Origin: Myxococcota bacterium
GTDB lineage: Bacteria > Myxococcota_A > UBA9160 > UBA6930
Reading direction: 5' to 3'
Length of the DNA stretch: 64,000 nt
NCBI GenBank assembly: GCA_965223705.1
Contig: OZ245015.1
Coordinates: 1,504,001 to 1,568,000 of the forward strand
Part shown: positions 15,388 through 32,023 of the stretch, in pieces
Layout of the letters: each line of letters begins with the position of its first letter
Position numbering within the stretch: the first letter of the stretch is position 1
Translations under genes and position numbers: made by a program
The notes under the pieces: generated by a model
Database searches by the model: none
Seen by the model: only the letters and a program-made list of their open reading frames with translations
What the model was told of the DNA's origin: nothing

Positions 15388-16237
15388 CCGCGTTGCGATC
15401 GGCTGCCTCTTGCTCTTCGCGGCAGGGATCGCGGGGGCGACGGACTACCGAATCCGCCCGGGCGATCTACTGGAGATCACCGTCTGGCGAGAGCCCGACC
15501 TGTCGGGCACCCACCGCGTCGGCGCCGACGGCGCTCTGCAGCACGTATTGGTCGGCGCGGTCCCCGTGGAAGGTGCCAGCCTGAGCGAGGCCGGCGCCTT
15601 GATCTCCGAGCGACTGGAGCGCGAATTCCTCCGCGAGGCGCGCGTGGCGATCACGCTCGTCGAATCGACGCATCGGCAGGCATCGGTCCTCGGCGACGTG
15701 CCGGCCCCCGGTCGTTACCCCGTCGACGAAGCGACGCACGTCCTCGATCTGTTGCTCGCCGCCTCGGTTGTTCACGGTGCGGGCGGAACGCTGCTTCGCT
15801 TCGAAGCGGCCCCGGACTCGGGAGCGGTCACGGAACCGACGGAGCGATTGCCCGTCGACGTCGCGGCCCTGCTCCAAGGGCGCTCTTTCGAAGACAACCA
15901 TCGCGTCTTCCCCGGCGACGTTCTCGTCGTGAGCGCCGCACCGGGCGAGGTCAGCGCCGGCCCGCAGCGTCGAGAGCCGGTTCGCGTCGTCGGAGCGGTG
16001 GAGTCGCCCGGGGGATTCGAGCTCGAGCAGGCCAGCACCCTCCTCGACGCCGTGCTCGCGGCGGGCGGACTCGCCGAGTATGCGTCGGGAAACCGGGCAC
16101 GTCTGGTGCGGGGCACGGGTGAGTCGCGCACCGAAACGCGCGTGCGCTTGCGCGATCTTCTGAAAGGGCGAGGCGCCCAAGAGAACCTCGCGCTCGAACC
16201 CGGAGACCTGTTGGTTGTTCCGGAGAGCTTCTTCTAG
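15362..16237 (+). CDS. Polysaccharide export OPX protein (Poly_export + SLBB), short form
   Basis: DYRIRPGDLLEITVWREPDLS, VLGDVPAPGRY, VVGAVESPG, LEPGDLLVVPESFF. Start uncertain (TTG 15362). Confidence 0.88.
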   Translation: MSNSLIATSRVAIGCLLLFAAGIAGATDYRIRPGDLLEITVWREPDLSGTHRVGADGALQHVLVGAVPVEGASLSEAGALISERLEREFLREARVAITLVESTHRQASVLGDVPAPGRYPVDEATHVLDLLLAASVVHGAGGTLLRFEAAPDSGAVTEPTERLPVDVAALLQGRSFEDNHRVFPGDVLVVSAAPGEVSAGPQRREPVRVVGAVESPGGFELEQASTLLDAVLAAGGLAEYASGNRARLVRGTGESRTETRVRLRDLLKGRGAQENLALEPGDLLVVPESFF

Positions 16238-16239
16238 CC

Positions 16240-18072
16240 ATGCTCGGACGCGAAGAGGGGAACGCCGAAGACGCGCGGTTGTCGGATTACGTCGCTTTTT
16301 TGCGGCGCCGGTTCCGCACCGCACTCGGCGTCTGCGCCGGCTTCATGGCGGTCGCGTTTTTCTGGAACGGCAGCCTGCCCGAGGTCTACGAGTCGAGTGC
16401 GCGCGTCGTGATTGGCTCCGCAACCCGCGGGTTCTTTAGCGACACCACCAATCCGATCGAGAGCTACTTGTTCGAGCGTCGCTCTTTCGAAACGCAGCTC
16501 GAGGTCATCGCGAGCGAACCCGTCGCGACCCTCGCGGCGATCGACCTCGGTTGGGTCGCGGAGGATGCGCCCCTCGAGGCGCGGCAACACGCGGCCGGAC
16601 AAGTTCGCGGCGCTCTCTCCGTGCGTCATCTTCGCGACACCCGAATCGCGGTCATCGCGGCGCGCGATTCGAACCCGGCCCGGGCCCGGAACGTGGCAAA
16701 CGCTGTTGCGCGCGCCTACATCGCTTTTTCTCAGCAGGAAGGGCAGGAGGCCCGTTTGCGTTCTGCCGCTTGGTTGACCGAGGAGCTCGACGAGATTCGC
16801 GGTCGATTGCGCACGCGTTCCGAGGAGCTCGTCGCCGCACCGCCAGCGGTGAGCGCCGCACCCGGGCAGGCGGCTCGCGGCCAATCGGAACGGCTCACGA
16901 CGGCGTTGGGCGCGGCGGAGCTCGACTTGGTCGAGTTGCTGCAGCGCTATCGCGAGGGACACCCGCGCGTCGTCGAAGCGCGAGCGCGCGTCGCGCGTCT
17001 GCGCGGAAAGGCCGCGCCGCGCGTGGCGGAAGCGGACCAGGACGCGGCGACGCGCGCGAGACTGCTACAGCGGGACATCGAGCTCGATCATGAGATGTAC
17101 GACGTTCTCCTCAAGAAGCTGAAAGAGATCGACGTATCGGGCTCGATCGGCGAGGCGAATCTCCGAATTCTCGAATCCGCGCGCATGAGCTCCGCACCCA
17201 TCGCGCCGCGGACGACGCGCAACTTGGCCGTCGCTCTTCTGCTCTCGCTTTGCGCCGCGGTCGCCACGGCGTTCTGCATCGACAATCTCGACCGAAGCGT
17301 CGGAACGCCCGAAGAAATCAGACGCTTCTTGGGACTTCCCACCTTGGGCGTCGTCACCCGGCTCGCGCAGCACTCGGGCAGGGCGGGCGCGACCGGCACG
17401 AGCCCCGGCGGCGAGATGTTCCGGACCCTGCGGACGAACTTGCGTTTCAGCCACGTCGATGCCCCGCGTCGGGTCGTTCTCGTGACGAGCGCGGGGCCCG
17501 CGGAGGGCAAGTCGACGGTCATTGCGAACCTCGGTCGGTCGTTGGCAGCGAGCGGGCGCCGCACCTTGTTGATCGATACGGACCTTCGCAAGCCGTCATT
17601 GCATCGCGCCTTCGAGGTCGGACGCACCCCCGGCTTGGTCGATGTCCTGGCGGGCGACGCGTCGGTTACGGACGCCCTTCGCACCACGGAAACGGACGGC
17701 TTGGCACTCTTGACCTGCGGTCCGCGTCCTGCGAACCCGGCCGAACTCATCGAGTCTCGGAAGCTCCAAGAGCTCGTCGCGCAGCTGCGGGAGTCCTTTG
17801 ACTACGTGCTCCTCGACTCGCCGCCTTCGGGCGGACTCATCGATGCGAGCTTGCTGTCGGTACTGGCCGACGGAGTCATCTTCGTCGTCGAACCCCGACG
17901 TTTTGATTCGCGCATCTTGCGCGGCGCCCTGCGTCAGCTCGAGCGGGGCGGAGCGCGCATCTACGGAGCGGTCCTCAACAAGGCGGAGCGCGACGACAAC
18001 GCGTCGGTCTACGGCTACTACGAGTACGGAGAGCCGGCTGAAGTCGTCGCCGCGCCGGTCTCGACGCCGTGA
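16240..18072 (+). CDS. wzc: Wzc-like co-polymerase / tyrosine autokinase
   Basis: Wzz-like N-terminus, GEMFRTLRTNL, TSAGPAEGKST, LIDTDLRKP, LLDSPP, C-terminal YGYYEY cluster. Confidence 0.92.
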   Translation: MLGREEGNAEDARLSDYVAFLRRRFRTALGVCAGFMAVAFFWNGSLPEVYESSARVVIGSATRGFFSDTTNPIESYLFERRSFETQLEVIASEPVATLAAIDLGWVAEDAPLEARQHAAGQVRGALSVRHLRDTRIAVIAARDSNPARARNVANAVARAYIAFSQQEGQEARLRSAAWLTEELDEIRGRLRTRSEELVAAPPAVSAAPGQAARGQSERLTTALGAAELDLVELLQRYREGHPRVVEARARVARLRGKAAPRVAEADQDAATRARLLQRDIELDHEMYDVLLKKLKEIDVSGSIGEANLRILESARMSSAPIAPRTTRNLAVALLLSLCAAVATAFCIDNLDRSVGTPEEIRRFLGLPTLGVVTRLAQHSGRAGATGTSPGGEMFRTLRTNLRFSHVDAPRRVVLVTSAGPAEGKSTVIANLGRSLAASGRRTLLIDTDLRKPSLHRAFEVGRTPGLVDVLAGDASVTDALRTTETDGLALLTCGPRPANPAELIESRKLQELVAQLRESFDYVLLDSPPSGGLIDASLLSVLADGVIFVVEPRRFDSRILRGALRQLERGGARIYGAVLNKAERDDNASVYGYYEYGEPAEVVAAPVSTP

Positions 18073-19868
18073 GACACCTCGCGCTGCCGCTCGCTCTGTT
18101 GGCTTTGGTCGCGACGGCCTTGGTGGGCTATGGCGGTACCACGCCCTGGGCCGCGGCTCTGGCACACCTCCTGATTGCACTGACGGTTCTCGTCTTCGCG
18201 GTTGCTACACGCCGAACCGGCTCGATCAGCGCCTACGTGCTGGTGGGGTCATGGATCGGGCTCGGGGCGATGTCGCTCTCCATCGGAGACTCGGTCGACC
18301 CCGGTCTCGATGCCTTGGGCGCCTTGGTGGCTTCTGCGAGCGTGTTCTTGCTCGCCGAACGCGTCCGCGGTCGCCGCGCGGAGCGCTGGCTTGCGACTGG
18401 AATCGCGAGCCTCGCCGCCGTCGTCTCGGTGTGGGCGATCGTGCGGGTGCCGGCGGACGGCGATGCCCTCGGGCCTTTCGGAAACGCGAACCACCTGGCG
18501 TCCTGGATGCTGCTGCCGGGAGCCCTCGCGCTCGCCGCGTTTCTCGACTCCGACATCCGGAGGCGGGGCCGCCGAGAGTCGGGTTTCCTTTGGTTTCTCT
18601 TGTGCGGCGCAGCCGCTGCCGCCGTCGCGGTGACCGGTTCTCTCGGCGGGGCGATCGCGGGGGCGGTGGCCGCGCTGGTTGCGGTGGGAGGTCACCGGTT
18701 CGTCCGGAACGCGGAGATCCGAAAGGCCGCCGGACAACTCCCCGTGGCGAGGCTTCCGCGGATCGCCTCGCTTTCGCTCCTCGCAGCCTACGTGGCGCTC
18801 GCCGGAGCTCTGACCGTCGGTTCGTCACTCTTCCCCGACGGCATCTCCGTAAAATCGGTGGGAAGCGAGTCGTCCGTGGGGATGCGTTGGGCGGTTTACG
18901 GAGCGGCTTCGCGAGCCGGTCTCGAGCACGCGCCGCTCGGCTCCGGCCTGGGAAGCTTCGCGGAAGCCTTCGCCGCCGAACGGCCGCGAGGACTCCCCTA
19001 CGGCGTTCGGTTCGCGCACAACGAGCCGCTTCACGGATGGGTGGAGCTCGGAGTGCCCTTCCTGCTTCTCGCGCTCGTGTCTCTCACCATCATGGCGAGG
19101 CGTCTTCCCGCGGCGCTCGCGCTCGCTCCCTCGCGCTTTCGCATCGGAGCGATGGCGGGGCTCGCCGGCCTCGCGGTGCACAGTTTGTTCGACTTCCCGC
19201 TCCACGTGCCGGCAATCGCTTGCGTGGCGGCGATCGGCTTGGGTTTTGCCTGGCGTCTCCCCCGAGAAGGAACCGGCCTGCGGCCGCAGTGGTCGAGTGC
19301 TGCGCTGGCGAGTCTGGGCGTGCTCGGGATCGGTTTGTCCGGCACCCAGCTCGTCGCGAGCGCAAACGAGGAGCTGGCCGTTCGGGCGGAAGCGGCCGGC
19401 GACTTTCAGGCCGCGCTCTCCCACGTCGAACGCGGCCTGCGCGCGCGCCCCTGGCGGCCCTCGCTGCGGCAACTGCGCGCCGACAACCTGGAATACGCGG
19501 CCGTCTTCGATGGCGCAAAACTCGGAGACTCGTCCGTTGCCGACGCGCGCGCAGACGCCATCGCGGTAGCGCCGAGGCGCGCGAATTTCCGCCTGCAGTT
19601 CGCTCGGGCTCTCGCGGAGGCAGGTGACGCGGACCGCGCGCGCGAAGAAATCGCGGCGGCGAAGCGCCTCGACCCCGCATCTCCGGCGCCACTGCTCGCC
19701 GCCGCGAATCTCGCTTTTCGCAGCGGAGACCTGTCCCAGGCGGAAGAGCAGATCCGGGCGGCGATCGCCCTCCACCCGGGCTTGGCTTCGGAACTCGCAC
19801 GTCACGCTCCGGTATTGTGGGGACGCGTGCACGCGGTGTCCCTGGCCGAACCGGGGACGAAGAAATGA
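18069..19868 (+). CDS. O-antigen ligase/Wzy_C family protein with C-terminal TPRs
   Basis: Multi-TM; GPFGNANHLA, GSGLGSF, FAHNEPL..WVELG, HSLFDFPLH; TPR-like helices. Confidence 0.85.
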   Translation: MRHLALPLALLALVATALVGYGGTTPWAAALAHLLIALTVLVFAVATRRTGSISAYVLVGSWIGLGAMSLSIGDSVDPGLDALGALVASASVFLLAERVRGRRAERWLATGIASLAAVVSVWAIVRVPADGDALGPFGNANHLASWMLLPGALALAAFLDSDIRRRGRRESGFLWFLLCGAAAAAVAVTGSLGGAIAGAVAALVAVGGHRFVRNAEIRKAAGQLPVARLPRIASLSLLAAYVALAGALTVGSSLFPDGISVKSVGSESSVGMRWAVYGAASRAGLEHAPLGSGLGSFAEAFAAERPRGLPYGVRFAHNEPLHGWVELGVPFLLLALVSLTIMARRLPAALALAPSRFRIGAMAGLAGLAVHSLFDFPLHVPAIACVAAIGLGFAWRLPREGTGLRPQWSSAALASLGVLGIGLSGTQLVASANEELAVRAEAAGDFQAALSHVERGLRARPWRPSLRQLRADNLEYAAVFDGAKLGDSSVADARADAIAVAPRRANFRLQFARALAEAGDADRAREEIAAAKRLDPASPAPLLAAANLAFRSGDLSQAEEQIRAAIALHPGLASELARHAPVLWGRVHAVSLAEPGTKK

Positions 19869-21145
19869 TCCGGCCGAACGCGAACACGCAGTGGGTCCTG
19901 GGGGCGGCGTGCGGCGCAGCACTCGCAGGCGTGTTGGCCCTCGCCCCGCTCGGGCTTTCGGTCGCCCTCGCGGCCTTCTCTCTGCTGTTCGTTCCCTCGC
20001 TACTCCTGCTCGCGCGCGAGCCCTTCGAGCGACGGGTTTTCTGCGCGGCCGTGGGCGCACGTGCCCTCTTGGCGGTCGTGATCTACTACAGCGGAGTTTC
20101 GGACTTCTTTGCCCTCGATCCGGTGCGGTACGAGCGTCTCGGCGCCGAGCTCGCTGCCTACTGGTCGGGCTCGCAGAGCGCGCCGCCGCAAATCTACGGT
20201 CGCGTCGGCTACTACGCGTGGAATGCCGCCATCTATTTCGTGTTTGGCCACGAGCCCCTCGCGCCGACACTCATCAACGCCGTGATCGGCGGATGGTGCG
20301 TGATCTTCGCGAGCCGTGTCGCCGGAGTGCTCTCGGGAGAACGGGCGGCTCGCTACACGGCGTTGGTCTGCGCGTTCTGGCCATCGCTCATGCTGTGGTC
20401 GAGTCTCAATCTCAAAGACGCGCAGGCGATCTTTCTGATTCTGGCGGCGATCCTGGCCGTCCAAAAGCTCTCCGCCCGGCCCTTGGCAGCCGGGGCCTCG
20501 GCCTTTGCAGCGATCGCACTACTCAGTCAGATCCGCGGCTACATGGCGCTGGTCTTGCTCCTCTCGATGTCGCTCGGCGTTCTGATACCGCGACTCGCGC
20601 GGGTGTCTCTCCTTGTGGTGCCCGCCGCGGTCGTCGCGCTCGCGTTGCTGCCGAGCTTGGAGCTCTTTCAGGAGCTGGCTCAGGAAGTCACGCTCGAGCA
20701 GCTTTCGAGAACGCGCGGGAAACTCGCGGCCGGCGCGTCGGCGTATTTCGCGGACGCCGATCTGTCGACTCCGCGCGCGGCGCTGTCGTTCTTGCCGATC
20801 GGACTCACGTACTTCTTTCTAGCCCCGATGCCGTGGCATTTGCTCAGCGGGCGTCAGTTGATGGTCCTCCCCGAAATGCTCGCGTGGTACGGACTGTTGA
20901 TTTGGATTGCGCGGGGCGCCATTTCGCTGCTGCGCACGCGATCCAGGGAGACGCTGCCGGTTCTCCTGTTCGTCGCCACGGCGTCGGTCTCTTACGCGAT
21001 GGTGGAGGGGAACCTCGGCACGGTGTACCGACATCGCGCGCAGGTCGTGGTTCCGTTGCTGGTCTTCGCGGCCCACGCGCTCGCCGAAGCAAAGGAAGAA
21101 CGTCGACGCCCGCTGCCCCTGGCGCCGGCGGTGAGTCCCGCATGA
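19865..21145 (+). CDS. Polytopic GT-C-fold protein (putative Wzy polymerase)
   Basis: DPVRYE, FWPSLMLWSSLNLKD, APMPW, NLGTVYRHRAQ; many TM segments. Confidence 0.65.
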   Translation: MIRPNANTQWVLGAACGAALAGVLALAPLGLSVALAAFSLLFVPSLLLLAREPFERRVFCAAVGARALLAVVIYYSGVSDFFALDPVRYERLGAELAAYWSGSQSAPPQIYGRVGYYAWNAAIYFVFGHEPLAPTLINAVIGGWCVIFASRVAGVLSGERAARYTALVCAFWPSLMLWSSLNLKDAQAIFLILAAILAVQKLSARPLAAGASAFAAIALLSQIRGYMALVLLLSMSLGVLIPRLARVSLLVVPAAVVALALLPSLELFQELAQEVTLEQLSRTRGKLAAGASAYFADADLSTPRAALSFLPIGLTYFFLAPMPWHLLSGRQLMVLPEMLAWYGLLIWIARGAISLLRTRSRETLPVLLFVATASVSYAMVEGNLGTVYRHRAQVVVPLLVFAAHALAEAKEERRRPLPLAPAVSPA

Positions 21146-22332
21146 CGGTGGGTTGGCTCGTGGAGAACGCGGCTCCGTTTGTGTACGAGGAAGTCGCCGC
21201 CCTGAGGAAGCGGGGAATCTCGGTTTCCGTCGCGTCGGTGTTCCGGCCTTTCGGCGCACAAGATTGGACCGAAGCGTTCGACGGGCCGGTGTTCTATCCC
21301 GCACGCGGTCGGCGCGGTTGGCTCCTTCGTTCGATCCAAAACGCGGCGCGTCGACCCCTTGCTTTTGCGAGGGTGATGAACCGCGCACGGCTCGAGCGCG
21401 CGCCGTACCGGTTGGTCGCGCTCGCCGCCGAGTTGGCCGAGCGGGCGAAGGTCGAGGAATGGACCCATGTCCACGGAACGTTCGCGACGTTTCCGGCCTG
21501 GGTCGCTTGGGCGGTCGCCGAGATGCGGTCGATTCCCTTCAGCATGACGGGCCACGCGTACGATGTGCAGGAGCCGCGACCCTGGTTGCCGAGAGTGATC
21601 GACGACTGCGCGTTCGCTCGGGCGATTTCGACGGAAACCGCCGGCCGGATGAAGCGACTGGCCGCGAGCGGAAACGGCCGCTCGAAGATTCGGGTCGCAC
21701 ATTTAGGGGTCGACACCGAGCGTTTCGCGCCGAGTGGCGAGCGCCGCCGACGCGGTGCGCCGCGCATTCTTTGCGTCGCGAATCACGTCCCGGAAAAAGG
21801 GATCGAGCACCTTCTCGATGCCGCCCGCCAACTGGCCGAGGAGGGCACCGAAGTGCGCGTCGAGCTCGTCGGCGAGGGCCCGCTCACGGACTCGCTCCGC
21901 GCACGCGCCTCGCGTCTCGGGTTGACGCCGCGCTCTGTGGTCTTTCGCGGGCGTCGCGATCGAGAGCAGGTACGCCGAGCGCTCGCTCGCGCGACGATTT
22001 TTGCTTTGCCGTGCAGCGCGGGTGGGGGCGTCGATCACGACGGGTTGCCGGTGGCGATTCTGGAAGCGATGGCCTGCGGTCTCCCGCTGGTCACGACGCC
22101 GGTGGGCGGTATCCCCGACGCGATCGAAGACGGCGAGAACGGGCGTCTCGTCCCGCCGGACGACCCGGCCGCTCTCGCGCGCACGTTGTCGGAACTGCTG
22201 ACGGATCCCGCACAGCGGCGTCGGTTGGGAGCGAGCGCCCGCCGATCCGCGGAGGAGCGATTCTCCGCCAGCGCGGCGGCGCGGCGGCTCGATGTTCTTC
22301 TGTCGGGCACCGTGTCGGGAGCCCGCGCATGA
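21142..22332 (+). CDS. Glycosyltransferase family 4
   Basis: FSMTGHAYD, EKG, DGLPVAILEAMACGLP...GGIPDAIEDGENG; start inside track ORF 19624..22332. Confidence 0.9.
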   Translation: MTVGWLVENAAPFVYEEVAALRKRGISVSVASVFRPFGAQDWTEAFDGPVFYPARGRRGWLLRSIQNAARRPLAFARVMNRARLERAPYRLVALAAELAERAKVEEWTHVHGTFATFPAWVAWAVAEMRSIPFSMTGHAYDVQEPRPWLPRVIDDCAFARAISTETAGRMKRLAASGNGRSKIRVAHLGVDTERFAPSGERRRRGAPRILCVANHVPEKGIEHLLDAARQLAEEGTEVRVELVGEGPLTDSLRARASRLGLTPRSVVFRGRRDREQVRRALARATIFALPCSAGGGVDHDGLPVAILEAMACGLPLVTTPVGGIPDAIEDGENGRLVPPDDPAALARTLSELLTDPAQRRRLGASARRSAEERFSASAAARRLDVLLSGTVSGARA

Positions 22333-23639
22333 GGGCACCTCGCGTCTTGTTGGCGGCCTACTACTTTCCGCCCGTCGCGGGGGGCGGGGTCACGCGCACC
22401 CTCGCTTTGATCGATTCCCTGCGTCGGCACGGCGCCCACCCGTCGGTAGTGACCGTCGACGACGCGGCTTGGACGCGCGACCCGACCCTGTGCGCGGGAA
22501 TCTCCGAGGTGCCCGTCGTTCGCGTCCCGAATCCCGATTGGGGTCGCGTCCGTCGCCGTGGAACGGTGTCGGCTGGACGACCCGGAAGAGGGCGTCTGCG
22601 CAAAGTGCTCGTCCCCGATCTCCACGTCGGGTGGAGTGTGCTCGCCGCTGCGGTCGTCGCCGGGATGGCACGCGCCAACGCCTTCGACGTCGTCTACACC
22701 ACGGCGCCGCCGTACTCCGCACACGTCATCGGGTACGTCGCGCGTCGTTTGGGTAAGCGTTGGGTCGCGGATTTCCGCGACGCTTGGATCGATGCGCCGG
22801 ACCGACAAGGGCTCGGCCCGCGGCGACTCGCTGTTGAGAAACGGCTCGAAGCCGCCGTGTTTCGGCACGCCGATCGGACGATCTTCGCGTCGGCAGGTGC
22901 TCGGCGCCGCGCGATCGCGCGCCATCCGAACCTCGCGAACCGCAGCGAGGTAACGCTCACGGGCTTTGACCCCCGTCGCTACGTAGGCGCGGCCGATCCG
23001 GTTCCGACGCGCGCCGAACGCCGCTACCGGTTGGTGCACGCCGGCAACGTCGGACTCGATGCGAAGGCCTCGAGGGCGACCGCATTCCTCGACGTCTTGG
23101 CGACGTGGCGGGAGCGGCATCCCGAAGTAGAGACGTCCGTCGACGTGACGTTTCTCGCAGCGGAGGCGTGGTTCCGCGGTGAAATCAACCGTCGGGAGCT
23201 CCAGCGGTTCGTACGCATCGAACCCGCCTGCTCGCGCGGAGACCTCGCAGCGAGGCTCGAGCAGGCGCATCGATGTTTGCACATCGCGCCTCCGGGACCG
23301 CGTGGTGCCGACCCGATTCCGGGAAAGCTTTTCGACGCCCTGGGCTCCCGCCGTCGCTTGTTGTCCTTCGCCGACGGGGGCGCGCTGTCGGAGCTCTTGC
23401 AGCAATACGACTGGGGCGAGGCTTTCGCCCCAAGCGACACCGAGTCGCTGATCCACTTCCTCGAATCGGAACGCCGGGGGGTGCTCGCGGGGACTTACGT
23501 TCCCGTCCTGACCGACGCGGCTCGCTCGTCGTGCACGAACGAAGTGGCTCTCGAGGGCCTCGTTCGGGCGATTCTCCGAGAAGAGCGCGAGGAACGATCC
23601 CGGCAAACGGCGTTCGCGCCTTGGGGAGCGACGCCATGA
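22329..23639 (+). CDS. Glycosyltransferase family 4
   Basis: AYYFPPVAGGGV.R, TTAPPYSAH, WVADFRDAW, IPGKLFD. Confidence 0.87.
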   Translation: MRAPRVLLAAYYFPPVAGGGVTRTLALIDSLRRHGAHPSVVTVDDAAWTRDPTLCAGISEVPVVRVPNPDWGRVRRRGTVSAGRPGRGRLRKVLVPDLHVGWSVLAAAVVAGMARANAFDVVYTTAPPYSAHVIGYVARRLGKRWVADFRDAWIDAPDRQGLGPRRLAVEKRLEAAVFRHADRTIFASAGARRRAIARHPNLANRSEVTLTGFDPRRYVGAADPVPTRAERRYRLVHAGNVGLDAKASRATAFLDVLATWRERHPEVETSVDVTFLAAEAWFRGEINRRELQRFVRIEPACSRGDLAARLEQAHRCLHIAPPGPRGADPIPGKLFDALGSRRRLLSFADGGALSELLQQYDWGEAFAPSDTESLIHFLESERRGVLAGTYVPVLTDAARSSCTNEVALEGLVRAILREEREERSRQTAFAPWGATP

Positions 23640-24517
23640 GAGTGTCTGTCAGTCTCGTGACGCACCGCAGTCGATCGCATATCGACGCTTGCCTCGCTGC
23701 ACTCCGTACGCAGCGCGAAGTCGCAGAGATTCTCGTGGTGGACAGCGGCAGCGACGATGGTACGACGCAACACTTGCGGAGAACCCATCGCGATGTGTGG
23801 GTCGACGCGTCCGCCGAGAACGTCGGTTACGCGGCTGGACACAACCGCAACTACCGGCGCGCCACCGGGGACGCGTTCCTCGCGCTGAACCCGGACGTCG
23901 TCATGGATCTGAACTGTCTCGAACGACTCTGCGGCGCTCTGGCCGATCGAGCCGATATCGGCTCGGTCGGGCCCAAACTACTGCGCGCTCGTACGAACAG
24001 TCTGGTCGATTCCGCGGGGATCGAACGCGATGTCTTGCGCGGAAAGTTCCGCGACCGCGGTGCGGGCGAGGCATCGAGTCGATATCGCCAACGCGAAGAA
24101 GTGTTCGGGATCTGCGGGGCCGCCGCGCTCTACCGGAGGGAGGCGCTCGAAGAGGTTTCCGGGAAAGAGCGCGCTCCGTTCGCCGAATCATTTTTCATGT
24201 ACTACGAGGATGTCGACCTGGCGTGGCGTCTTCGCCGGGCTGGGTGGAAGAACGTTTTCGTACCGACCGCGCGCGCACACCACCGACGCGGGGGCGCAGG
24301 GGCGGCGTCGGCGTTTACGGAATACCACCTCGTGCGAAACCGCCTCTGGGTTTCCGTGCGAAATGCGAGCTTGGCCGAATTCGCGTGCGAAGCGCCGGGT
24401 CTTCTCTTGTTCGAAGCCGCGAAGTGCGTGCAGGCCACGCGCCGAGGCCATCTGCGTCGTGCGCTGAGGGATCAGTGGCGCGGCATGGCTCGGGCGTGGT
24501 CGGAGAGGGCGCCGTGA
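23636..24517 (+). CDS. Glycosyltransferase family 2
   Basis: VVDSGSDDGT, NVGYAAGHN, LNPD, FFMYYEDVDLAWR. Confidence 0.93.
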   Translation: MRVSVSLVTHRSRSHIDACLAALRTQREVAEILVVDSGSDDGTTQHLRRTHRDVWVDASAENVGYAAGHNRNYRRATGDAFLALNPDVVMDLNCLERLCGALADRADIGSVGPKLLRARTNSLVDSAGIERDVLRGKFRDRGAGEASSRYRQREEVFGICGAAALYRREALEEVSGKERAPFAESFFMYYEDVDLAWRLRRAGWKNVFVPTARAHHRRGGAGAASAFTEYHLVRNRLWVSVRNASLAEFACEAPGLLLFEAAKCVQATRRGHLRRALRDQWRGMARAWSERAP

Positions 24518-25692
24518 AGATCGCGCACGTCGCCAACACCGATTACTTCTGCGGTTTCCTGCTGCGGGATCAGTTGAGGAAGCTGCGCGACTCCGGGCAC
24601 GAGGTCCACGCCGTGAGCGGCCCCGGCCCGCTTCTCGATGCCCTCGGTGCCGACGGGATTCGCGTGCACACCGTCGAGAACGCGCGCCGGATCGATCCCG
24701 GGCGAGACCTGCGAACGCTCTTCTCCTACGTGCGTTTGTTCCGTCGAGAGGCGTTTGATCTGGTCCACACCCACAACCCGAAGGTGAACGTCTTGGCGAG
24801 TGCCGCCGCCCGCATCGCGGGAGTGCCGCGAGTGGTGTCTACGCTTCACGGTCTCTACTCCCACGAGGGGCAGCGGGCAGCCGTGCGACGCCTCTGGCGG
24901 GGATTCGAGTCGGTGGGCGCACGGTTCGCAGATCTCGTCCTGTGTCAAAGCGCCGAAGACGTCCGCACGGCGCGTTGGCGCCGCATCGTTCCGGACGAGA
25001 GCCTGCGACGGTTGGGCAACGGAGTCGATCTTCGACGATTCGACGCGCGCCGCTTTCGCTCGGAGGACAGCGCCGCGCTCCGCCGCCGCTTCGGCATCGC
25101 GGCGGACGAACGGGTCGTGGGTTTTGTCGGTCGTCTCGTGCGCGAAAAGGGCGTAGAGGATCTACTCGCCGCTTGCCGTCGTCTGCCTCGCACGCGTGTG
25201 TTGTTGGTCGGACCGGACGAGCGCGGAGAAAAAAGCGACGCGTTGGATCCCCGCGCGTTGCGAGCGGCTCCCGGCGTCTCGTGGCTCGGCGTGCGAAACG
25301 ACATGCCGTCGGTGTTCGCGACGTTCGACGCCTTTGTCTTGCCGTCCTACCGGGAGGGGTTCCCCCGCTCGCTGGTCGAGAGCGCAGCGATGGGAATCCC
25401 CGCGATTGCGACGGACATTCGCGGTTGCCGCGAAGTGGTCGTGCCGGGACAGACCGGTTGGCTCGTTCCGGCGCGGGCGCCCCACGTCTTGCGCAGCGCG
25501 CTCGAGGGGCTGCTGCGCGATGCTTCGCGTCGCCGACGATTCGGCGAAGCGGCCCGTCGCCGAGCGGAAGCGAACTTCGACGAGCACGCCGTTTTCGAGC
25601 GGGTCGCGCGGGCTTACGCGGAGCTCCCGCTCCGCCGTCCTGCTGCTGCGCCGCGCGTCCCTGCGCGTGCAGAGAGCCCGGCAACCCGCTGA
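24514..25692 (+). CDS. Glycosyltransferase family 4
   Basis: HTHNPK, VGRLVREKG, LPSYREGFPRSLVESAAMG, TDIRGCRE. Confidence 0.93.
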   Translation: MKIAHVANTDYFCGFLLRDQLRKLRDSGHEVHAVSGPGPLLDALGADGIRVHTVENARRIDPGRDLRTLFSYVRLFRREAFDLVHTHNPKVNVLASAAARIAGVPRVVSTLHGLYSHEGQRAAVRRLWRGFESVGARFADLVLCQSAEDVRTARWRRIVPDESLRRLGNGVDLRRFDARRFRSEDSAALRRRFGIAADERVVGFVGRLVREKGVEDLLAACRRLPRTRVLLVGPDERGEKSDALDPRALRAAPGVSWLGVRNDMPSVFATFDAFVLPSYREGFPRSLVESAAMGIPAIATDIRGCREVVVPGQTGWLVPARAPHVLRSALEGLLRDASRRRRFGEAARRRAEANFDEHAVFERVARAYAELPLRRPAAAPRVPARAESPATR

Positions 25693-25810
25693 ATCCGCGG
25701 ACCATTTCCCTAAAGCCGAGGGCGGGTCCCTCCGAAGAAACCAGGAGCGGCGCGTCCCTGGTTGTCCGGTGTTCGACTACGGGTGAGTGCGCGCGGAAGG
25801 AGGGGATTTC

Positions 25811-26995
25811 GTGTTCGTGATTCCCAGGCAATCCCCGCCGGCGAGACGCTGGCTAGCGCACCTCGTTCGTGCCTCGGCGGGTGCGATTCGCCCCGGCGAC
25901 CTGTTCGACGACGTGCTCCCGTTCGACACGGCCGAAGCCGTTTCTCTGGCGCGACGTCACCGGGTCGGTCCGCTGATCCACCGCGGGTTGGCCGATGGGA
26001 GAATCGCCGATTCGCTGCCCGACGCGTTCGCTCGGGCTTGTCGCGAACTGTATTTCGCGACGCTCCGCAAAAACATCGTCGCGCTCGAGACCGCCGGGCC
26101 GGTTCTCTCGCACTTGGCGGCCGCCGGCATCGCCAGCGCACCCCTCAAGGGTTGGGCGCTGCTCACCGGCGCCGAGCCGGTCTACGCCGACGCGGGCATG
26201 CGGCCGATGGACGACCTCGATCTCATCGTTCCGCGCGCGGAAGTCGACCGCGCGACGCGCATCATCGAAGCCCACGACTTCCGAGCCATCGCGCCTCGCG
26301 GTCCTCGGCTCGCTGCGGGGCACGAGATCGCGTTTCACCGGCAAGTCGCAGGCGTCGATCTTTTCGTCGAACTCCACTTTGCATGGGCCGGTAGCGAAAG
26401 CTTGATGCGGCAGTACGCGATGGGCGGGGAGACGTTCCTCGAGGCCTTCTGCTCCGATTGCGGACCGGGAGAACCCCGGCAACCGACACGGATCGGACAC
26501 CTTCTGTTCGTGGCGGTGCACGCGGCGCGACACGCGTTTCGCCGCTGGCTCTGGTTGCTCGACCTCCACCGGATTGTCGACGGGGTGGCTGGTGAGCCGG
26601 CACTGGATTGGTCCGAGGTCGTTCGCACGGCGAGCGAGCACCGGTTGCGGCGTCCGCTGTACGCGGGCCTCGCGGCGGCGCGCGAGCTCCTTCGGACGCC
26701 GGTGCCGAAGGAAGTGCTCGCAGAGCTCGCGCCGGGACCGGTGCGACGCCGCCTTCTGCACAGCAGCTTGCGGCCGAGTGCGGCGCCGAGCGAAGCCCAG
26801 CGTCGCGATCGCGTGGCGAAGCTTCTCTTGGGGGAGTCGTGGTGGGATGTGGCGCGAACCGCGGCCTGGGCGTCGAACCCGGGTCGCTCCTGGTACGAGA
26901 AACGCGGGGAGCGCTCGGATCTCGCTCAGCGGATCGCCAACCCGGTACGAATGCTTCGCGGAGCGCCTCGGCCGAATCTGGAGCCGCGCAAGTGA
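25811..26995 (+). CDS. Nucleotidyltransferase family protein (NTP_transf_5 type)
   Basis: LKG.AL...Y...GMRPMDDLDL, VELH, RWLWLLDL; AGGAGG before GTG 25811. Confidence 0.87.
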   Translation: MFVIPRQSPPARRWLAHLVRASAGAIRPGDLFDDVLPFDTAEAVSLARRHRVGPLIHRGLADGRIADSLPDAFARACRELYFATLRKNIVALETAGPVLSHLAAAGIASAPLKGWALLTGAEPVYADAGMRPMDDLDLIVPRAEVDRATRIIEAHDFRAIAPRGPRLAAGHEIAFHRQVAGVDLFVELHFAWAGSESLMRQYAMGGETFLEAFCSDCGPGEPRQPTRIGHLLFVAVHAARHAFRRWLWLLDLHRIVDGVAGEPALDWSEVVRTASEHRLRRPLYAGLAAARELLRTPVPKEVLAELAPGPVRRRLLHSSLRPSAAPSEAQRRDRVAKLLLGESWWDVARTAAWASNPGRSWYEKRGERSDLAQRIANPVRMLRGAPRPNLEPRK

Positions 26996-27273
26996 CCGAG
27001 AGCGCTTGCGCGCGAAGGGTCGAGGGGGTGATCTCTCGGACGATCGCCGGAGAGACGGTTCTCGTTCCGATTCACAGTCGCGCGGAAGAGCTCGGGCTCT
27101 TCACACTCAATTCCGTCGCCAGTTTTATCTGGGAACGGATGGACGGGCGCCCTCTTCGCGACATCGCATCCGAGCTGGCGGCCACCTACGACGTCAGCAT
27201 CGAAGAAGCGACGACGGACCTCACGCACTTTGCACGAGAACTCGTTGCCGCCCGCTGCGCCGAGGTGTGTTGA
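26992..27273 (+). CDS. PqqD-family RiPP recognition element (stand-alone RRE)
   Basis: 93 aa: SRTIAGETVLVPI...LFTLNSVASFIWERMDG...YDVSIEEATTDL.F..EL. Confidence 0.92.
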   Translation: MTESACARRVEGVISRTIAGETVLVPIHSRAEELGLFTLNSVASFIWERMDGRPLRDIASELAATYDVSIEEATTDLTHFARELVAARCAEVC

Positions 27274-28433
27274 TGGTTGCGCCCGAAGTGAACCTCCGAA
27301 GCGTCCGAAGCGATGCCCTCACGCGCGACTACAAGCGGCGGATCGTCGAGGATCGCGTTCCCGTCTCGGCGTCCATCGAGCTCACGTACCGTTGCAACCT
27401 GCACTGCGGCCACTGCTACTGCCCAAAGGGAGAGCGTTCACAGGAACTATCGACGCAGGAGATCTCGGATCTCATCGACGAGATGGCCGACATGGGGACG
27501 CTCTTTCTGCTGATGACGGGCGGGGACCCGCTGTTGCGGAAGGATTTCCCCGAGCTTTATCGCCACGCCAAGGAACGCGGGCTTCTCGTCACGGTCTTCA
27601 CAAATGGCACGTTGATCGATGAAGACATCGCCGACCTGTTTCGCGAACTCCCTCCGTACCTGATCGAAATCTCGCTCTATGGGCTCACTCGCAAGACCTA
27701 TGAGACCGTCGTCGCCGTTCGCGGTTCGTACGATCGCTGTCTCGCCGGGATCACGCGAGTTCTTCGCGATGGACACCGGCTCGCGCTGAAATGCCCGGCG
27801 ACGTCCGACAATGCCCACGAAATTCCCGAGCTCGCGCGTTTTGCCAAGGATCTGGGAGTCGACTTCCGCTACGACCCAGTGATCCTCGCGACGATGGAGG
27901 GCAAGACGCACACACACGCCATGCGACTCACGGCGGAGCAGGTCGTCGCCCTCGAAGCGGCCGACGTCGAGAAGGACCGGGCGTGGACGAGCTACATGGA
28001 GGAAGCCCCTGCGGTTCCCGAGAACGATCGGCTGTTCTCGTGTGGCGCCGGGAAGAACTCGTTCCACATCGATCCCTACGGAAACGTCCAAGTGTGTCTG
28101 ATGGTGAAAAATTTCCCCCGCAACGTGCGAGAACGCTCGCTTCGCGAGATCTACTACCAGGAATTCCCCGAGATCCTCGCGATCAAACGCAAGCCGGAAA
28201 CGAAATGCGGCTCGTGTAGCCACCGGGCGACGTGCAACAACTGTCCGGGGATGGCGCTCTGGGAAACCCAGACCAACGACGGGCACGTCGAGTTCGCTTG
28301 CCAGCTATCGCAAGTTCGGGCGGAAACGTACGGCCCGCCAGAAGCTTCGAGCGGCGCGTGCGGTTCCGGTGGTTGCGGTAGCGGCGGCTGTGGAGCCGCG
28401 GAATCGCTGCTTCAGATCGGGGGCATCCGATGA
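27273..28433 (+). CDS. Radical SAM/SPASM peptide maturase
   Basis: ELTYRCNLHCGHC, TGGDP, TNGT; SPASM CGAG...IDPYG..QVC...CGSC....CNNCPG...C. Confidence 0.93.
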   Translation: MVAPEVNLRSVRSDALTRDYKRRIVEDRVPVSASIELTYRCNLHCGHCYCPKGERSQELSTQEISDLIDEMADMGTLFLLMTGGDPLLRKDFPELYRHAKERGLLVTVFTNGTLIDEDIADLFRELPPYLIEISLYGLTRKTYETVVAVRGSYDRCLAGITRVLRDGHRLALKCPATSDNAHEIPELARFAKDLGVDFRYDPVILATMEGKTHTHAMRLTAEQVVALEAADVEKDRAWTSYMEEAPAVPENDRLFSCGAGKNSFHIDPYGNVQVCLMVKNFPRNVRERSLREIYYQEFPEILAIKRKPETKCGSCSHRATCNNCPGMALWETQTNDGHVEFACQLSQVRAETYGPPEASSGACGSGGCGSGGCGAAESLLQIGGIR

Positions 28434-28615
28434 CCGAGGAGAGCGGACGGAAACCCTACGAGGCGCCGGAGATTCGCAGAGTTGAACTCGACGTGATGGC
28501 GAGTTTCCCGGACAACTGCAAGATGGATGTCGGGACCGGGGGGTTTGGGGGTGCCGCGGGTTCATGCCAGCAGTCGAGCCTACCGACGGTGATGTGCATG
28601 AACATCGGCTCGTAG
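28430..28615 (+). CDS. Putative RiPP precursor peptide (61 aa)
   Basis: MTEESGRKPYEAPEIRRVELDVMASFPDNCKMDVGTGGFGGAAGSCQQSSLPTVMCMNIGS; YxxPxI leader; Cys30/46/56; ATGA-coupled to the rSAM gene. Confidence 0.85.
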   Translation: MTEESGRKPYEAPEIRRVELDVMASFPDNCKMDVGTGGFGGAAGSCQQSSLPTVMCMNIGS

Positions 28616-28620
28616 CCGAC

Positions 28621-29505
28621 GTGCGCGTTCTCGAGGTCGCGGGTGTGCGCATCGCGGTCGAAGTACCCCGGGAGTTGCCTTGGACGTGGCCGGACGGTCC
28701 GCTGACGCGATTCGCCGGCGCGGACGCAGGCCGCGCCGACGTGCGCGTCGCCGTTCGAATCGGAAAGCCCGTCGTCAGTGCCAGGGCGCTGTCGTACGAC
28801 TCGGGCGGCGGGATCTTTGACGTCGTCGCAAGTCGCGACACTCTGGAGATCGTTCTGCGCATCCGCGGCGAGATCCAGCGCGTGGCGCGATTCGACCGCG
28901 ACTTTCGCGATGGCGAAGTCACGCTCGCCCCGGATTCCTTCTACGCGACCGAGAACTACTACCCCTTGGCCTACCCCCTCGACGAATGGATCTTCTTCCA
29001 CCGCATCTTGCGGGAGAGCGGGTTGCTGGTTCACGCCTGCGCGGCGGAGCGGTCCGGGCGCGCGTTGTTGTACTGCGGTCGCTCCGGCGCCGGGAAGAGC
29101 ACCACCGCGAAGTTGCTGCGGCGCTACGCCGACGCTTCCGTGCTCTCAGACGATCGCATCGCGCTGCGGGTCGAAAAAGACGGAATCTGGGCGCACGGCA
29201 CGCCCTGGCACGGCGAAGCGCCGCTCTCCGAACCGCGCGCCGCGAAGCTCGTCGCGATTCACTGGATCGAGCACGCCGCACGCCTCGTACACTCGCCGAT
29301 GCGGGGGGCCCGTGCTGCGGTGGCTCTGCTGGGCAACGCTTTTCTCCCCGCCTACGACGACAAGGGCGCCGCCGCCGGTCTTGCAGTCGCAGAGGAAATC
29401 GTCGCGCGGGTACCCCTCGCGAAGCTCGGCTTCCCGAAAGATCGCCGCATGGTCGATCACGCACAGTCCCTCTGGTCGAACGCCGGTGGGAGCGCGCTGG
29501 CGTGA
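28621..29505 (+). CDS. HPr kinase-like P-loop kinase (ScmC / lasso-kinase-like)
   Basis: LVHACA, GRSGAGKST, LSDD, HGTPWHG. Start uncertain (GTG 28594 or 28621). Confidence 0.8.
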   Translation: MRVLEVAGVRIAVEVPRELPWTWPDGPLTRFAGADAGRADVRVAVRIGKPVVSARALSYDSGGGIFDVVASRDTLEIVLRIRGEIQRVARFDRDFRDGEVTLAPDSFYATENYYPLAYPLDEWIFFHRILRESGLLVHACAAERSGRALLYCGRSGAGKSTTAKLLRRYADASVLSDDRIALRVEKDGIWAHGTPWHGEAPLSEPRAAKLVAIHWIEHAARLVHSPMRGARAAVALLGNAFLPAYDDKGAAAGLAVAEEIVARVPLAKLGFPKDRRMVDHAQSLWSNAGGSALA

Positions 29506-29948
29506 GCGACGCTCCGCCGGCTTTTGCTGCACACGAGCTCGCCTTGACCGAGGCTCTTCGAAAAGGAGCCGTGTGGATCCGACCGTGCGGTGTGTCGATG
29601 CGCCCCACACTCGTCGAAGGCGATTCTGTCGAGCTCGCGCTCTTACCGGCGCGCTGGGGCGCGATCGCTCTGGTGTCCCACCGAGGAAGGTTGTGGCTCC
29701 ACCGGTTGGTATGGCGCCGCGGCGGGCGGTGGTTGTTGTGGGGCGACGCGCGAGCGCGTCCCGAGGGCTGGGTGGAAGAACGGCAGATCCTCGCGATCGC
29801 CGTGGCGCGCCGCCGCGATGACGGACGGGCGCTCGACCTCGTGCGCGGTCCGGCGCGCCTTCTGGGGCTCTGCGCCGCAGCCGTCCGACGCCCTTTGCGC
29901 CGTCTACGCGCCCACGCGCAGCGAGCCACGCCGCTCCGCGCGCCCTAG
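29502..29948 (+). CDS. S24/S26 signal-peptidase-like protein
   Basis: GVSMRPTLVEGD...LHRL...WGDA; start inside track ORF 28986..29948. Confidence 0.8.
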   Translation: MSDAPPAFAAHELALTEALRKGAVWIRPCGVSMRPTLVEGDSVELALLPARWGAIALVSHRGRLWLHRLVWRRGGRWLLWGDARARPEGWVEERQILAIAVARRRDDGRALDLVRGPARLLGLCAAAVRRPLRRLRAHAQRATPLRAP

Positions 29949-30743
29949 AGCGATCCGCAGGAGCGCGGAGGACAGGCACCATCCCAGCGCAGCCATCCAG
30001 GTGAGATGCAAGAGGGGCTCTGCGAGCTGACGCAGCGACGCGCCTGCAAACAACGCATCGCGGAGGGCGTCGATTCCGATGTAAAGGGGCAGCCACGAAG
30101 CGAGGACCGCGGCGGGGGCGGGGAGGAGCTCCGCCGGAAAATAGACGCCGCCGAGGAGCGTCATCAGCGCGAGCGACCCGCTGACGAACAAGTGCGCCCG
30201 TCGAGTGGCGAGCCACACCGCCGCTCCGGCGATGCCCACCGGAAGCATCGCGATTAGCGTGAGCGCGGCACACACCGAAGCGCCGATCCAATCGGGAGAG
30301 AATCCGGAGCTGCCGCGAAGCAACCAAAGCCAGGCGGCGGCGCCGTAGGCTGCCATTTGGATCGAAGCGAGGAGAAGTGCCGCCGTCGCGGCGCCGGCGA
30401 GAATCCCGGCGACGGGAGCCCCCGCTGCGATCGCGATTTCGAGCGTTCCCTCAGACGCGTCGCGCGCGAAGCCGTTCGCCACCGAACCGGCGACCACGGC
30501 GACCGTTTGGAACAGGATCAACCCCGATACGACGAATGCGAAGTAGTCGCCGCCGACGAGCTCGTCCGGCGCGCCGTCGACGAGACGGGCGATGAAAAAA
30601 TAGACGACCAGCCCGAGCAAACCGGACGCCAGCCCCGCGGCGGCAACCCAGCCGTAGGATCGCTGAATCGACAAGTCGCGTCGGATCACGCCCAGTGCCG
30701 TCGCGCATCCGGCGCGCCAATGCGGGCGCACGGCCGCGGTCAC
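29904..30743 (-). CDS. ABC-2 type exporter permease
   Basis: RRDL.I..SY, DYFAFV, EGTLE, LGGVYFPAELLP, LPLY.GIDALR. Confidence 0.85.
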   Translation of the reverse strand: MTAAVRPHWRAGCATALGVIRRDLSIQRSYGWVAAAGLASGLLGLVVYFFIARLVDGAPDELVGGDYFAFVVSGLILFQTVAVVAGSVANGFARDASEGTLEIAIAAGAPVAGILAGAATAALLLASIQMAAYGAAAWLWLLRGSSGFSPDWIGASVCAALTLIAMLPVGIAGAAVWLATRRAHLFVSGSLALMTLLGGVYFPAELLPAPAAVLASWLPLYIGIDALRDALFAGASLRQLAEPLLHLTWMAALGWCLSSALLRIALGRAERRGSLRVGA

Positions 30744-31402
30744 GCGGCGCGTTCCAAAGCCGATCGCGTCAGCCGACCTTCACGCAGGGTGAGCCACCCC
30801 GAGCAGTGTTCGGCGACGTGCCGCGGTTGGTGCGAAACCCAAAGTGCCGTCCGGCCCAACGCGCGAAGTTCCTCGGTGAGGCCGCGGTGGATGTCGTCCG
30901 TGCTGTCGGGATCGACCGCTGAGGTGGGCTCGTCGAGAAGTGCGAGTGTCGCAGGGGAGGTCAGGATTCGGACGAGGCCTGCGCGTTGCAGCATGCCCTG
31001 TGAGCATGCGTCGGCGCGAACGTCGAGGTCGCTCGCAATGCCGAAGCGCTCACTCAGCCGATCGATCTCCCGATCGATCGCGTGGGAGAAAGCGCCGGAC
31101 CAGCTCCCCGCGTAGCGCAGGTTCGCGCGCAGGCTGAGTCTGCGCTGAAAGCGGCCGCCGGCCTCTCCCGACCAAGCGATGGCGCCGCGCCGGCGAGCCG
31201 CGACCGCGCCGAGCGCGCCGACGCGTACGGTCCCGCGATCCGGGCGGAGCAGGCCGGCGCACAGGCGCAGCAGGGTGCTTTTGCCCGCTGCATTTCTTCC
31301 GCCGATCCCGACGATTCCCCCTCTGGGGACTTCGAGGCTCAACCCATCGAGGACGGCGTGCCCGTTGAATGCCTTCCGCACGTCGTGCAGTTCGAGAAAC
31401 AC
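30740..31402 (-). CDS. ABC exporter ATP-binding protein
   Basis: GRNAAGKST, CSQGMLQR, LLDEPT, SH; start uncertain. Confidence 0.87.
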   Translation of the reverse strand: MFLELHDVRKAFNGHAVLDGLSLEVPRGGIVGIGGRNAAGKSTLLRLCAGLLRPDRGTVRVGALGAVAARRRGAIAWSGEAGGRFQRRLSLRANLRYAGSWSGAFSHAIDREIDRLSERFGIASDLDVRADACSQGMLQRAGLVRILTSPATLALLDEPTSAVDPDSTDDIHRGLTEELRALGRTALWVSHQPRHVAEHCSGWLTLREGRLTRSALERAA

Positions 31403-31964: not shown

Positions 31965-32023
31965 GATCACCAAAACGAAACGTGAGCCCGGTCACCCGCG
32001 GGCCCCCAACGCGGAGAAACAAC

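Follow-up and report, generated by a model that had tools for sequence, protein, structure and literature searches.

Which peptide would be built by a gene cluster that pairs the accessory enzymes of phosphorylated lasso peptides with a radical S-adenosylmethionine (SAM) enzyme? This question is raised by positions 25811..31402 of a 64,000-nucleotide stretch of a Myxococcota bacterium genome (contig OZ245015.1, positions 1,504,001 to 1,568,000; hereafter the window). The original prediction for this locus proposed a cluster for a peptide made on the ribosome and modified post-translationally (RiPP), in which lasso-type accessory enzymes surround a single radical SAM enzyme and a lasso cyclase is missing, and our evidence supports this architecture. 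That the cluster is a conserved gene set encoding a real RiPP pathway of some kind is nearly certain. We further propose, with a confidence only a little above even, that the pathway follows the accessory logic of phospho-lasso peptides and of the linear polyphosphorylated peptides (LPPs), and that its rings are closed by the radical SAM enzyme. The likely product would be a peptide with cysteine thioethers whose last serine is phosphorylated and then perhaps glycosylated.

All eight genes of the original prediction were confirmed in place. On the forward strand, a PsmN/LppN-like nucleotidyltransferase of the NTP_transf_5 family (25811..26995; PF14907, scoring 126.8 bits where 31.2 is the cut-off) is followed by a discrete RiPP recognition element (RRE) of the PqqD family (26992..27273; PF05402, 57.1 against 23.4), a radical SAM-SPASM maturase (27273..28433; PF04055, 84.7; PF13186 SPASM, 22.9 against 21.5), the 61-residue precursor (28430..28615), an HprK-like peptide kinase (28594..29505, with an uncertain start at 28594 or 28621) and a Sec11/SipW-type S26 peptidase (29502..29948). 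An ABC-2 exporter lies convergently on the reverse strand (permease 29904-30743, ATPase 30740-31402; PF00005, PF12698, PF01061), and its 3′ end overlaps the peptidase gene by 45 nt. The tight coupling claimed for the genes is borne out by stop/start overlaps between nucleotidyltransferase and RRE, RRE and radical SAM enzyme, radical SAM enzyme and precursor, and kinase and peptidase. Pfam models likewise placed the nucleotidyltransferase, the RRE, both radical SAM domains and the exporter pair above their cut-offs. The HprK-like and S26-like labels stood less directly: both proteins fall below all Pfam and NCBIfam cut-offs, but in profile searches their homologue alignments match solved HprK (E 1.7e-4) and SEC11C (E 2.9e-6). 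A promoter and terminator scan of 12300-32000 returned hits at chance level (1 vs 1.1; 16 vs 16.6).

The precursor carries a YxxPxI leader motif (Y10-I15), three cysteines (Cys30, Cys46 and Cys56) and a Gly-Ser at its C-terminal end. A search with its open reading frame (ORF) gave 38/38 candidates, itself included, the 37 relatives being 68-98% identical. In the resulting alignment Cys30 is kept in 38/38 sequences and Cys46, Cys56, Ser49 and Ser50 in 37/37; K31, F26 and F39 are invariant (38/38), S25, S49 and S50 almost so, and the final Gly-Ser (S61) is present in 37/38, the lone exception being a shortened sequence. The precursor is under purifying selection: over its last 44 codons, 291 synonymous and 74 non-synonymous differences from the window were counted in 17 of 18 loci examined, which are not independent, some being close kin, and from which one locus (L012) was left out as a chimeric contig end. 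At this contig end (L012:9000-9502) the precursor gene forms an inverted chimera, an assembly artefact. The original prediction had made its case depend on a conserved small ORF, and in 8 of 9 other genomes such an ORF comes after the radical SAM gene, with the contig of the ninth stopping at that point. The combination of leader, three cysteines and final serine occurs once among 72,968 six-frame ORFs of the genome, in the precursor itself; since the pattern was derived from the precursor's own family, this count speaks to its rarity only.

The radical SAM enzyme carries the CxxxCxxC motif (C41, C45, C48) and seven SPASM cysteines (257, 275, 312, 315, 321, 324 and 343), which are invariant in 44/44 close and 78/78 mixed aligned sequences and align with the seven of the thioether-forming enzyme CteB. 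CteB keeps an open auxiliary-cluster site for the thiol of its substrate. An AlphaFold2 model of the enzyme (predicted local distance difference test score 87.5) has SuiB, SkfB, PqqE and CteB as its best fold matches, at about 20% identity. At the six active-site positions defined in PMC10288494 (here Y49, T82, F109, S134, L276 and M277), the enzyme is identical to SkfB in 4/6, to StsB in 3/6, to PqqE in 1/6 and to CteB in 1/6, in a comparison limited to these four enzymes and to residue identity at the six positions. Thioether formation is our best guess for the activity of this enzyme. Its Gly/Cys-rich tail (window 28350-28433), modelled with low confidence and finishing in an LLQIGG-like end, is kept in 36/44 close relatives vs 4/78 of the mixed set, with Cys363 in 41/44 and Cys368 in 37/44 close relatives, and could possibly act as an extra metal or cluster ligand.

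Judged by gene content, the closest studied system is that of the LPPs of Bacillota (Popov et al. 2026, PMC13381572). LPP clusters combine an S26 SpI-like peptidase, an RRE, a kinase resembling HprK, an NTP transferase and an exporter in a capsule-locus context, and their SpI-like peptidase LppS, together with the RRE, cleaves the leader behind position 16, with the leader tyrosine as the start of the count (PMC13381572). By analogy with these peptides and with pseudomycoidin, in which PsmK phosphorylates the last serine and addition of a hexose depends on PsmN (PMC6993621), the following pathway can be drawn. The YxxPxI leader would be bound by the RRE, whose best solved relative in profile searches is the lasso RRE TbiB1 (E 2.1e-12). 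The radical SAM-SPASM enzyme would then link Cys30, Cys46 and Cys56 by thioethers, most likely to α-carbons (sactionine type), with a loss of 2 Da for each. Ser61 would be phosphorylated by the HprK-like kinase, as by PsmK on pseudomycoidin; residues H147-G162-G165-G167-K168-S169-D186-D187 of this kinase correspond to the full eight-residue BsfK motif of PMC10368454. The nucleotidyltransferase, whose LKG (112-114) and DDLD (134-137) motifs are both kept in 6/6 aligned copies from radical SAM modules, is a candidate for decorating the phosphoserine, probably with a sugar as in pseudomycoidin (PMC6993621).

Removal of the leader would fall to the S26 protein, a candidate RRE-dependent leader peptidase. 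Its best solved relatives are SEC11C and SEC11A, its S32, H67 and D82 are invariant in 14/14 aligned sequences, and it has no N-terminal anchor. Cleavage would most likely occur after Ser25, because M23-A24-S25 is in register with the LPP cleavage site (PMC13381572), and would release a 36-residue core. A complex prediction of RRE, precursor and S26 peptidase scored 0.00 with its controls not folded, and it was used neither for nor against this step. The product would finally be exported by the ABC-2 transporter, which is conserved beside the module in relatives and missing in one metagenome locus (L022).

The comparison with LPPs also bears on how new the system is. Both share the SpI-like S26 peptidase with its Ser-His-Asp residues, a discrete RRE, a kinase like HprK, an NTP transferase, an exporter, a YxxP leader, the absence of a lasso cyclase and a polysaccharide-locus setting. 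The window cluster differs in its radical SAM-SPASM enzyme and three conserved cysteines, whereas LPPs are linear and have no ring-forming enzyme, and in its exporter, which is of the ABC-2 type and not MsbA-like. From the LPP consensus YxxPxVLxHQxIxFETxxS only YxxP is shared, HQxIxFET being absent from the window leader; the position of the LPP Ser3 phosphate is Asp28 in the precursor family (Asp in 37/38), which has an invariant final serine instead, and the host is Myxococcota-like and not from Bacillota. Membership of the LPPs was rejected on the leader consensus, Ser3, the linear product and the MsbA-like exporter, although the core genes agree. The main text of PMC13381572 makes no mention of radical SAM or SPASM, and Radical_SAM appears once in six of its supplementary files, as a column head of a domain matrix.

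Phospho-lasso clusters (paeninodin, pseudomycoidin of PMC6993621 and Bsf of Bradymonas, PMC10368454) have in common with the window a lasso-type RRE, a kinase with the BsfK motif and a PF14907-type transferase, and paeninodin and pseudomycoidin share the final serine. The window cluster, however, lacks a macrolactam cyclase and a B2 protease, its precursor has neither a conserved ring Asp/Glu nor a Thr(-2), and ring formation would fall to a radical SAM enzyme instead. The CteB-type seven-cysteine SPASM domain is shared with sactipeptide and ranthipeptide pathways, and to our knowledge the kinase, the nucleotidyltransferase and the S26 peptidase are not part of the StsB/StsC, SkfB or CteB pathways. 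By residue count the active-site profile lies nearer to SkfB and StsB than to CteB, and the sts cluster also has a discrete RRE and a three-cysteine, Gly-rich precursor (PMC10288494). With a discrete RRE, a radical SAM-SPASM enzyme and a short ORF bearing an RRE-type leader, the locus has the make-up of an RRE-dependent radical SAM RiPP cluster and, with conserved cysteine donors in the core beside the CteB-type domain, would also class at gene level with sacti- and ranthipeptides.

Read from its genes alone, the cluster is best described as a radical SAM version of LPP/phospho-lasso logic with an uncharacterised product. The original prediction had called the system a candidate new RiPP system; since the accessory set is already known from the LPPs (2026, PMC13381572), its union with a radical SAM enzyme is the new part. 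In agreement with the expectation that the cluster would match no known pathway, no curated NCBIfam cut-off is reached for SynChlorMet, GeoRSP or lasso models. In the literature searched, which included few subscription journals, there was no report of such a product and no characterised member of a class in which radical SAM cross-links are combined with a kinase, a nucleotidyltransferase and an S26 leader peptidase, although more than a thousand sequence clusters belong to the enzyme family; the family may be listed in the supplementary dataset of PMC10288494.

The cluster is one branch of a broad radical SAM family. Full-length relatives of the enzyme number 43, with 62-86% identity, and those that have a name carry the label Myxococcota; a gap then separates them from a broad group at about 40% identity that comprises at least 1,082 proteins at E<=1e-60 (8,000 scored). 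A look-up in the Atlas returned only unnamed radical SAM clusters, and no broad-family member tested reaches a specific NCBIfam cut-off. A metagenome scan gave at least 18 loci, and a profile scan of genome contigs listed at least 80, mostly with unrelated SPASM enzymes. Loci of the broad group belong to Nitrospirota, Chloroflexota, Verrucomicrobiota, deltaproteobacteria, Aminicenantes, Planctomycetota and further lineages. We examined 21 of the 80 (L028-L047 and L102). The kinase is present in 17/21, with none found in L040 (a 1.9-kb contig), L042, L044 and L045, and no RRE match was obtained in L046 and L047. Setting these six aside leaves 15 loci, so that the presence of RRE and kinase in 15/15 arises only after selection, with profiles partly built from the same loci; the S26 gene occurs in 9/15 and the nucleotidyltransferase in 6/15. 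L035, L037, L039 and L102 carry more than one radical SAM gene (two or three) or else two copies of the precursor. Another of the loci, L041 on a Candidatus Solincola contig, has the broad-family radical SAM enzyme, the RRE and the kinase together with a lasso B2 match and no S26 match, and is possibly a third mix of ring-former and protease.

A motif search of 21 broad-family loci produced 19 rows, from which one spurious reverse-strand hit was dropped, leaving 18 candidate precursors (17 distinct). In these distant precursors the first cysteine lies 19-23 residues from the leader Tyr/Trp (21 in the window precursor), 16/18 have three cysteines, 12/18 a lysine after the first cysteine and 15/18 a final serine, which the filter did not require. 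Two of them have E-T at the LPP-type cleavage register.

Several of our observations speak against thioether cross-links and a phosphate on the final serine. The top NCBIfam matches of the radical SAM enzyme are MftC (129 bits) and heme b synthase/NirJ (123), far below cut-off, and its top fold match is SuiB, a C-C cross-linker, so its SkfB/StsB-like active-site profile may reflect ancestry. The score with the StsB model is 105.5 against a cut-off of 625, the enzyme differs from StsB at active-site position 5, which StsB requires (PMC10288494), the cysteine spacing of the precursor is unlike the CxCxC hairpin of StsA, and the distant branch as a whole shows no conserved acceptor residue. The open site of the first auxiliary cluster could be occupied by Cys363 and Cys368 of the tail. 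As to the phosphate, S25, S49 or S50 could serve as alternative sites, 3/18 distant precursors have no final serine, the motif search gave no precursor in 4/21 broad-family loci, and LppN gave no product in a heterologous host (PMC13381572).

Some of these points, together with the invariant Lys31, Phe26 and Phe39, would also fit the same pathway with other radical chemistry, namely a C-C link at these residues, epimerisation or cysteine oxidation, with the cysteines forming a disulfide or binding metal. The lysine after the first cysteine recurs in the distant branch as counted above, SuiB is a Lys-Trp cross-linker, MftC is the top model match, and tail cysteines completing the first auxiliary cluster would point the same way. 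We nevertheless regard this alternative as unlikely, if serious: the distant cores keep the three cysteines but not the aromatics, disulfides would leave one of three cysteines unpaired, the active-site profile resembles SkfB/StsB more than PqqE (PMC10288494), and there is no conserved eighth SPASM cysteine upstream of C257 in the close-clade alignment (44 sequences). Thioether cross-linking thus remains the chemistry we prefer.

Where the original prediction was too narrow is in the extent of the unit: it had the module genes right and missed that they close a co-directional polysaccharide operon at 12953-25692 on the forward strand. The first gene (12953..14215) encodes a 420-residue protein without a Pfam or NCBIfam match, conserved at 36-46% in four relatives; an Atlas lead to an SLH domain (0.78) is weak and below the reliable range, and if true would make it a surface-polymer-binding protein. 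It is followed by a BBP2-like beta-barrel (PF10082 just below cut-off), a Wza-type export protein (PF02563 and SLBB) and a Wzc-type chain-length/tyrosine kinase protein (GNVR and AAA_31; TIGR01007, 175 vs a cut-off of 108), together at 14215..18072, and by a Wzy_C/O-antigen-ligase and TPR protein (PF04932, 36.8 vs 31.7) and a 426-residue membrane protein (18069..21145). The latter has no family match, is labelled Wzy-like by inference and serves here as the operon marker. Four glycosyltransferases (GT4, GT4, GT2, GT4; 21142..25692; PF00534/PF13692, PF13439 with the second below cut-off, PF00535) complete the operon, each gene overlapping the next by 4 nt. Most operon genes have overlapping stops and starts, and a gap of 118 nt separates the last glycosyltransferase from the nucleotidyltransferase.

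Operon and module are inherited together. The radical SAM gene was found in at least 10 of 225 genomes of the class (a floor, the first look being stricter) and the Wzy-like marker in 12/225, with all 10 among the 12. The last glycosyltransferase stands directly before the nucleotidyltransferase in 7/9 other genomes, while in G102 the nucleotidyltransferase and the marker share one contig and in G044 the contig ends. Downstream, a KH/TPR/rpoZ site is common to four families. Both flanking genes were located in 4/5 negative genomes probed, at a distance of 1.8-4.5 kb compared with 19.6 kb in the window, and the fifth gave no match to one of them; the whole block is thus missing in 4/4 testable negative genomes, which indicates that the operon and the peptide module are gained and lost as a unit. 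The radical SAM and Wzy-like protein trees are in agreement for supported clades, with 4/7 and 6/9 inner branches open. In relatives an acyl-CoA-synthetase-like gene, so labelled from sequence motifs, lies between KH and TPR (L007:13303-15162 and others) and is not found in the window.

Two marker-positive genomes have no close radical SAM relative. In G148 (92% complete), where no relative of the radical SAM gene was found, the operon and an orthologous nucleotidyltransferase (48%) are joined by a 4-nt overlap to a lasso kit (L142:5251-14258) of RRE, B2 protease, cyclase-like gene, lasso-leader ORF, kinase, PRMT-like methyltransferase, second nucleotidyltransferase and MsbA-like exporter, followed by the same KH/TPR/rpoZ genes. 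The B2 protein scores 71.1 vs 33 and the lasso leader 22.9 vs 19, and the cyclase-like protein has the lasso cyclase as its best match (312.8 vs 525). The first nucleotidyltransferase has lost the LKG, DxD and ELH motifs, which the 6/6 aligned copies from radical SAM modules keep, whereas the second, of the lasso kit, keeps LKG and DxD. We infer that this slot originally carried the radical SAM module, whose nucleotidyltransferase works for the peptide, and that another cyclic phosphopeptide kit later took its place. The candidate ring Asp in G148 would stand at position 10 if the Thr is taken as -2, which is unusual. In the second genome, G033 (68% complete), the operon runs as far as its last GT4, which is truncated, and no peptide module is present there; this GT4 stands beside an ArnT-like glycosyltransferase (L140:11140-14147), either by rearrangement or through an assembly fault. 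The swap is seen in one genome and on one assembled contig, which, like G033, counts against our proposal. In a search of 401 genomes of the phylum for further swaps, two stronger distant marker matches were examined and seven weak ones left aside: G335 has no RiPP genes near its match, and in G467 a lasso kit lies about 11 kb from the marker in a polysaccharide region of mixed orientation, not in the same slot. The G467 kit (L216:1792-7429) consists of RRE, B2 protease, cyclase, a precursor ending in Ser, methyltransferase, kinase and a divergent nucleotidyltransferase-like gene. PF14907 and PF05402 occur in 39/225 and 135/225 genomes of the class and are too general for mapping swaps.

Block inheritance with a Wzy-type operon and the lasso swap suggest that the peptide probably acts on the cell surface or within the matrix, with the polysaccharide, and give a hint that peptides of this kind serve the sugar coat of the cell. 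A stronger version would have the peptide work in polysaccharide assembly itself, the nucleotidyltransferase priming a glycan on the phosphopeptide for the glycosyltransferases to extend, or the peptide capping or anchoring the polymer, with any cyclic phosphopeptide kit fitting the slot. Besides the marker in all 10 radical SAM genomes, the block missing as a unit and the later filling of the slot by a lasso kit that brings a kinase and nucleotidyltransferase of its own, this would account for an operon without a priming phosphoglycosyl transferase (the genome has three PF02397 genes at other places), for Wzc/Wza no more than 10 kb away in 5/15 of the selected broad-family loci, with glycosyltransferase or Wzy matches in two more, and for LPP and paeninodin clusters sitting in capsule loci, where they are co-induced with espG (PMC13381572). 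We hold it to be rather improbable. One-block co-inheritance can result from hitch-hiking, the operon of G033 stands without a module, the 118-nt gap before the nucleotidyltransferase contrasts with the overlaps within the operon, decay of the nucleotidyltransferase after the swap ties it to the peptide and not to the polymer, 8/15 distant loci have no polysaccharide gene in the search, and priming and flippase genes may act from elsewhere.

A broader proposal, which we put forward as speculative and on balance improbable, is an interchangeable 'phospho-RiPP slot' in polysaccharide operons, in which a ring-stiffened phosphopeptide primes, caps or anchors a surface polysaccharide. Its parts would be RRE, kinase, nucleotidyltransferase and exporter; the ring-former could be a radical SAM enzyme or a lasso cyclase or be absent, and the protease could be S26 or B2. 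If true, the window product would be the first thioether-cross-linked phosphoglycopeptide, and the presence of paeninodin-type, LPP and related clusters in capsule loci would be explained; the LPP paper gives the role of capsule-linked phosphopeptides as unknown (PMC13381572).

Similar parts (PqqD, the HprK-like ScmC and radical SAM-SPASM enzymes) make up the in silico cassettes SynChlorMet (TIGR04248-TIGR04251) and GeoRSP (TIGR04302, TIGR04303), and the window cluster could represent a reduced, single-enzyme form of such an already catalogued family. The best NCBIfam matches are indeed ScmD for the RRE and ScmC for the kinase, and two- and three-enzyme relatives exist (L035, L037, L039). All scores are, however, far below cut-off: membership of SynChlorMet was rejected at 25.9/125 for ScmC, 28.4/100 for ScmD, 77.9/400 for ScmE and 67.6/400 for ScmF, with one radical SAM gene in the cluster, and that of GeoRSP at 21.3/100 for TIGR04302 and 74.2/400 for TIGR04303. 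The window precursor matches no such model, 0/10 precursors tested match any, and the two-enzyme loci L035 and L039 stay below 90 bits on ScmE/ScmF, which makes this origin very unlikely.

A lasso peptide, with its cyclase encoded by an AsnB-like gene of the operon or elsewhere in the genome, is already largely refuted and has a negligible chance of being right: the leader and RRE are of lasso type, an exopolysaccharide-type AsnB gene lies between GT2 and the last GT4 in most relatives (1-2 kb upstream of the nucleotidyltransferase in 6/8 radical SAM genomes with the interval visible) and Asp33 would be residue 9 if the core starts at Ser25, but Asp33 is kept in only 30/38, no Thr/Ile stands at the candidate -2 positions, and the relatives' AsnB scores 424.7 as a glutamine-hydrolysing synthase and 182 vs 525 as a lasso cyclase and is missing in the window and in G009 with the module intact, so it is not the peptide's cyclase. 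The original prediction of neither an AsnB-like cyclase nor a B2 protease in the window holds, five AsnB-like genes all lying outside it and PF13471 being absent from the whole genome (95% complete). Lasso membership was rejected for want of a macrolactam cyclase, a B2 protease, a conserved core Asp/Glu at 7-9 and a Thr/Ile at -2.

The proposed radical SAM pathway would extend the S26 leader peptidase of the Bacillota LPPs (2026, PMC13381572) to a radical SAM pathway and to another phylum. With one enzyme, one precursor and a very conserved peptide, the window holds a minimal version that makes an easy target for heterologous expression. Block inheritance, the exchange of the radical SAM module for a lasso kit and the decay of the nucleotidyltransferase amount to a natural experiment on why phosphopeptide clusters sit in capsule loci: next to the polysaccharide genes a cyclic phosphopeptide kit is retained, and not one given ring chemistry.

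Elsewhere in the window, a histone-like protein of KKATR repeats without a Pfam match is encoded at 33268-33804, and a D-Ala-D-Ala-ligase-like gene, a lysine-2,3-aminomutase-like radical SAM gene and MurJ stand in a row at 58222-61999, unrelated to the cluster as far as tested. Outside the window, the same genome (G000) has a second PF14907 nucleotidyltransferase, an HprK-like protein and two GT2 genes at C1:4508478-4513243 (L147), a locus with no radical SAM enzyme or cyclase. The PqqD protein encoded there carries a leader-like YxxPxL at its own C-terminus and resembles a fusion of RRE and precursor set among glycosyltransferase genes.

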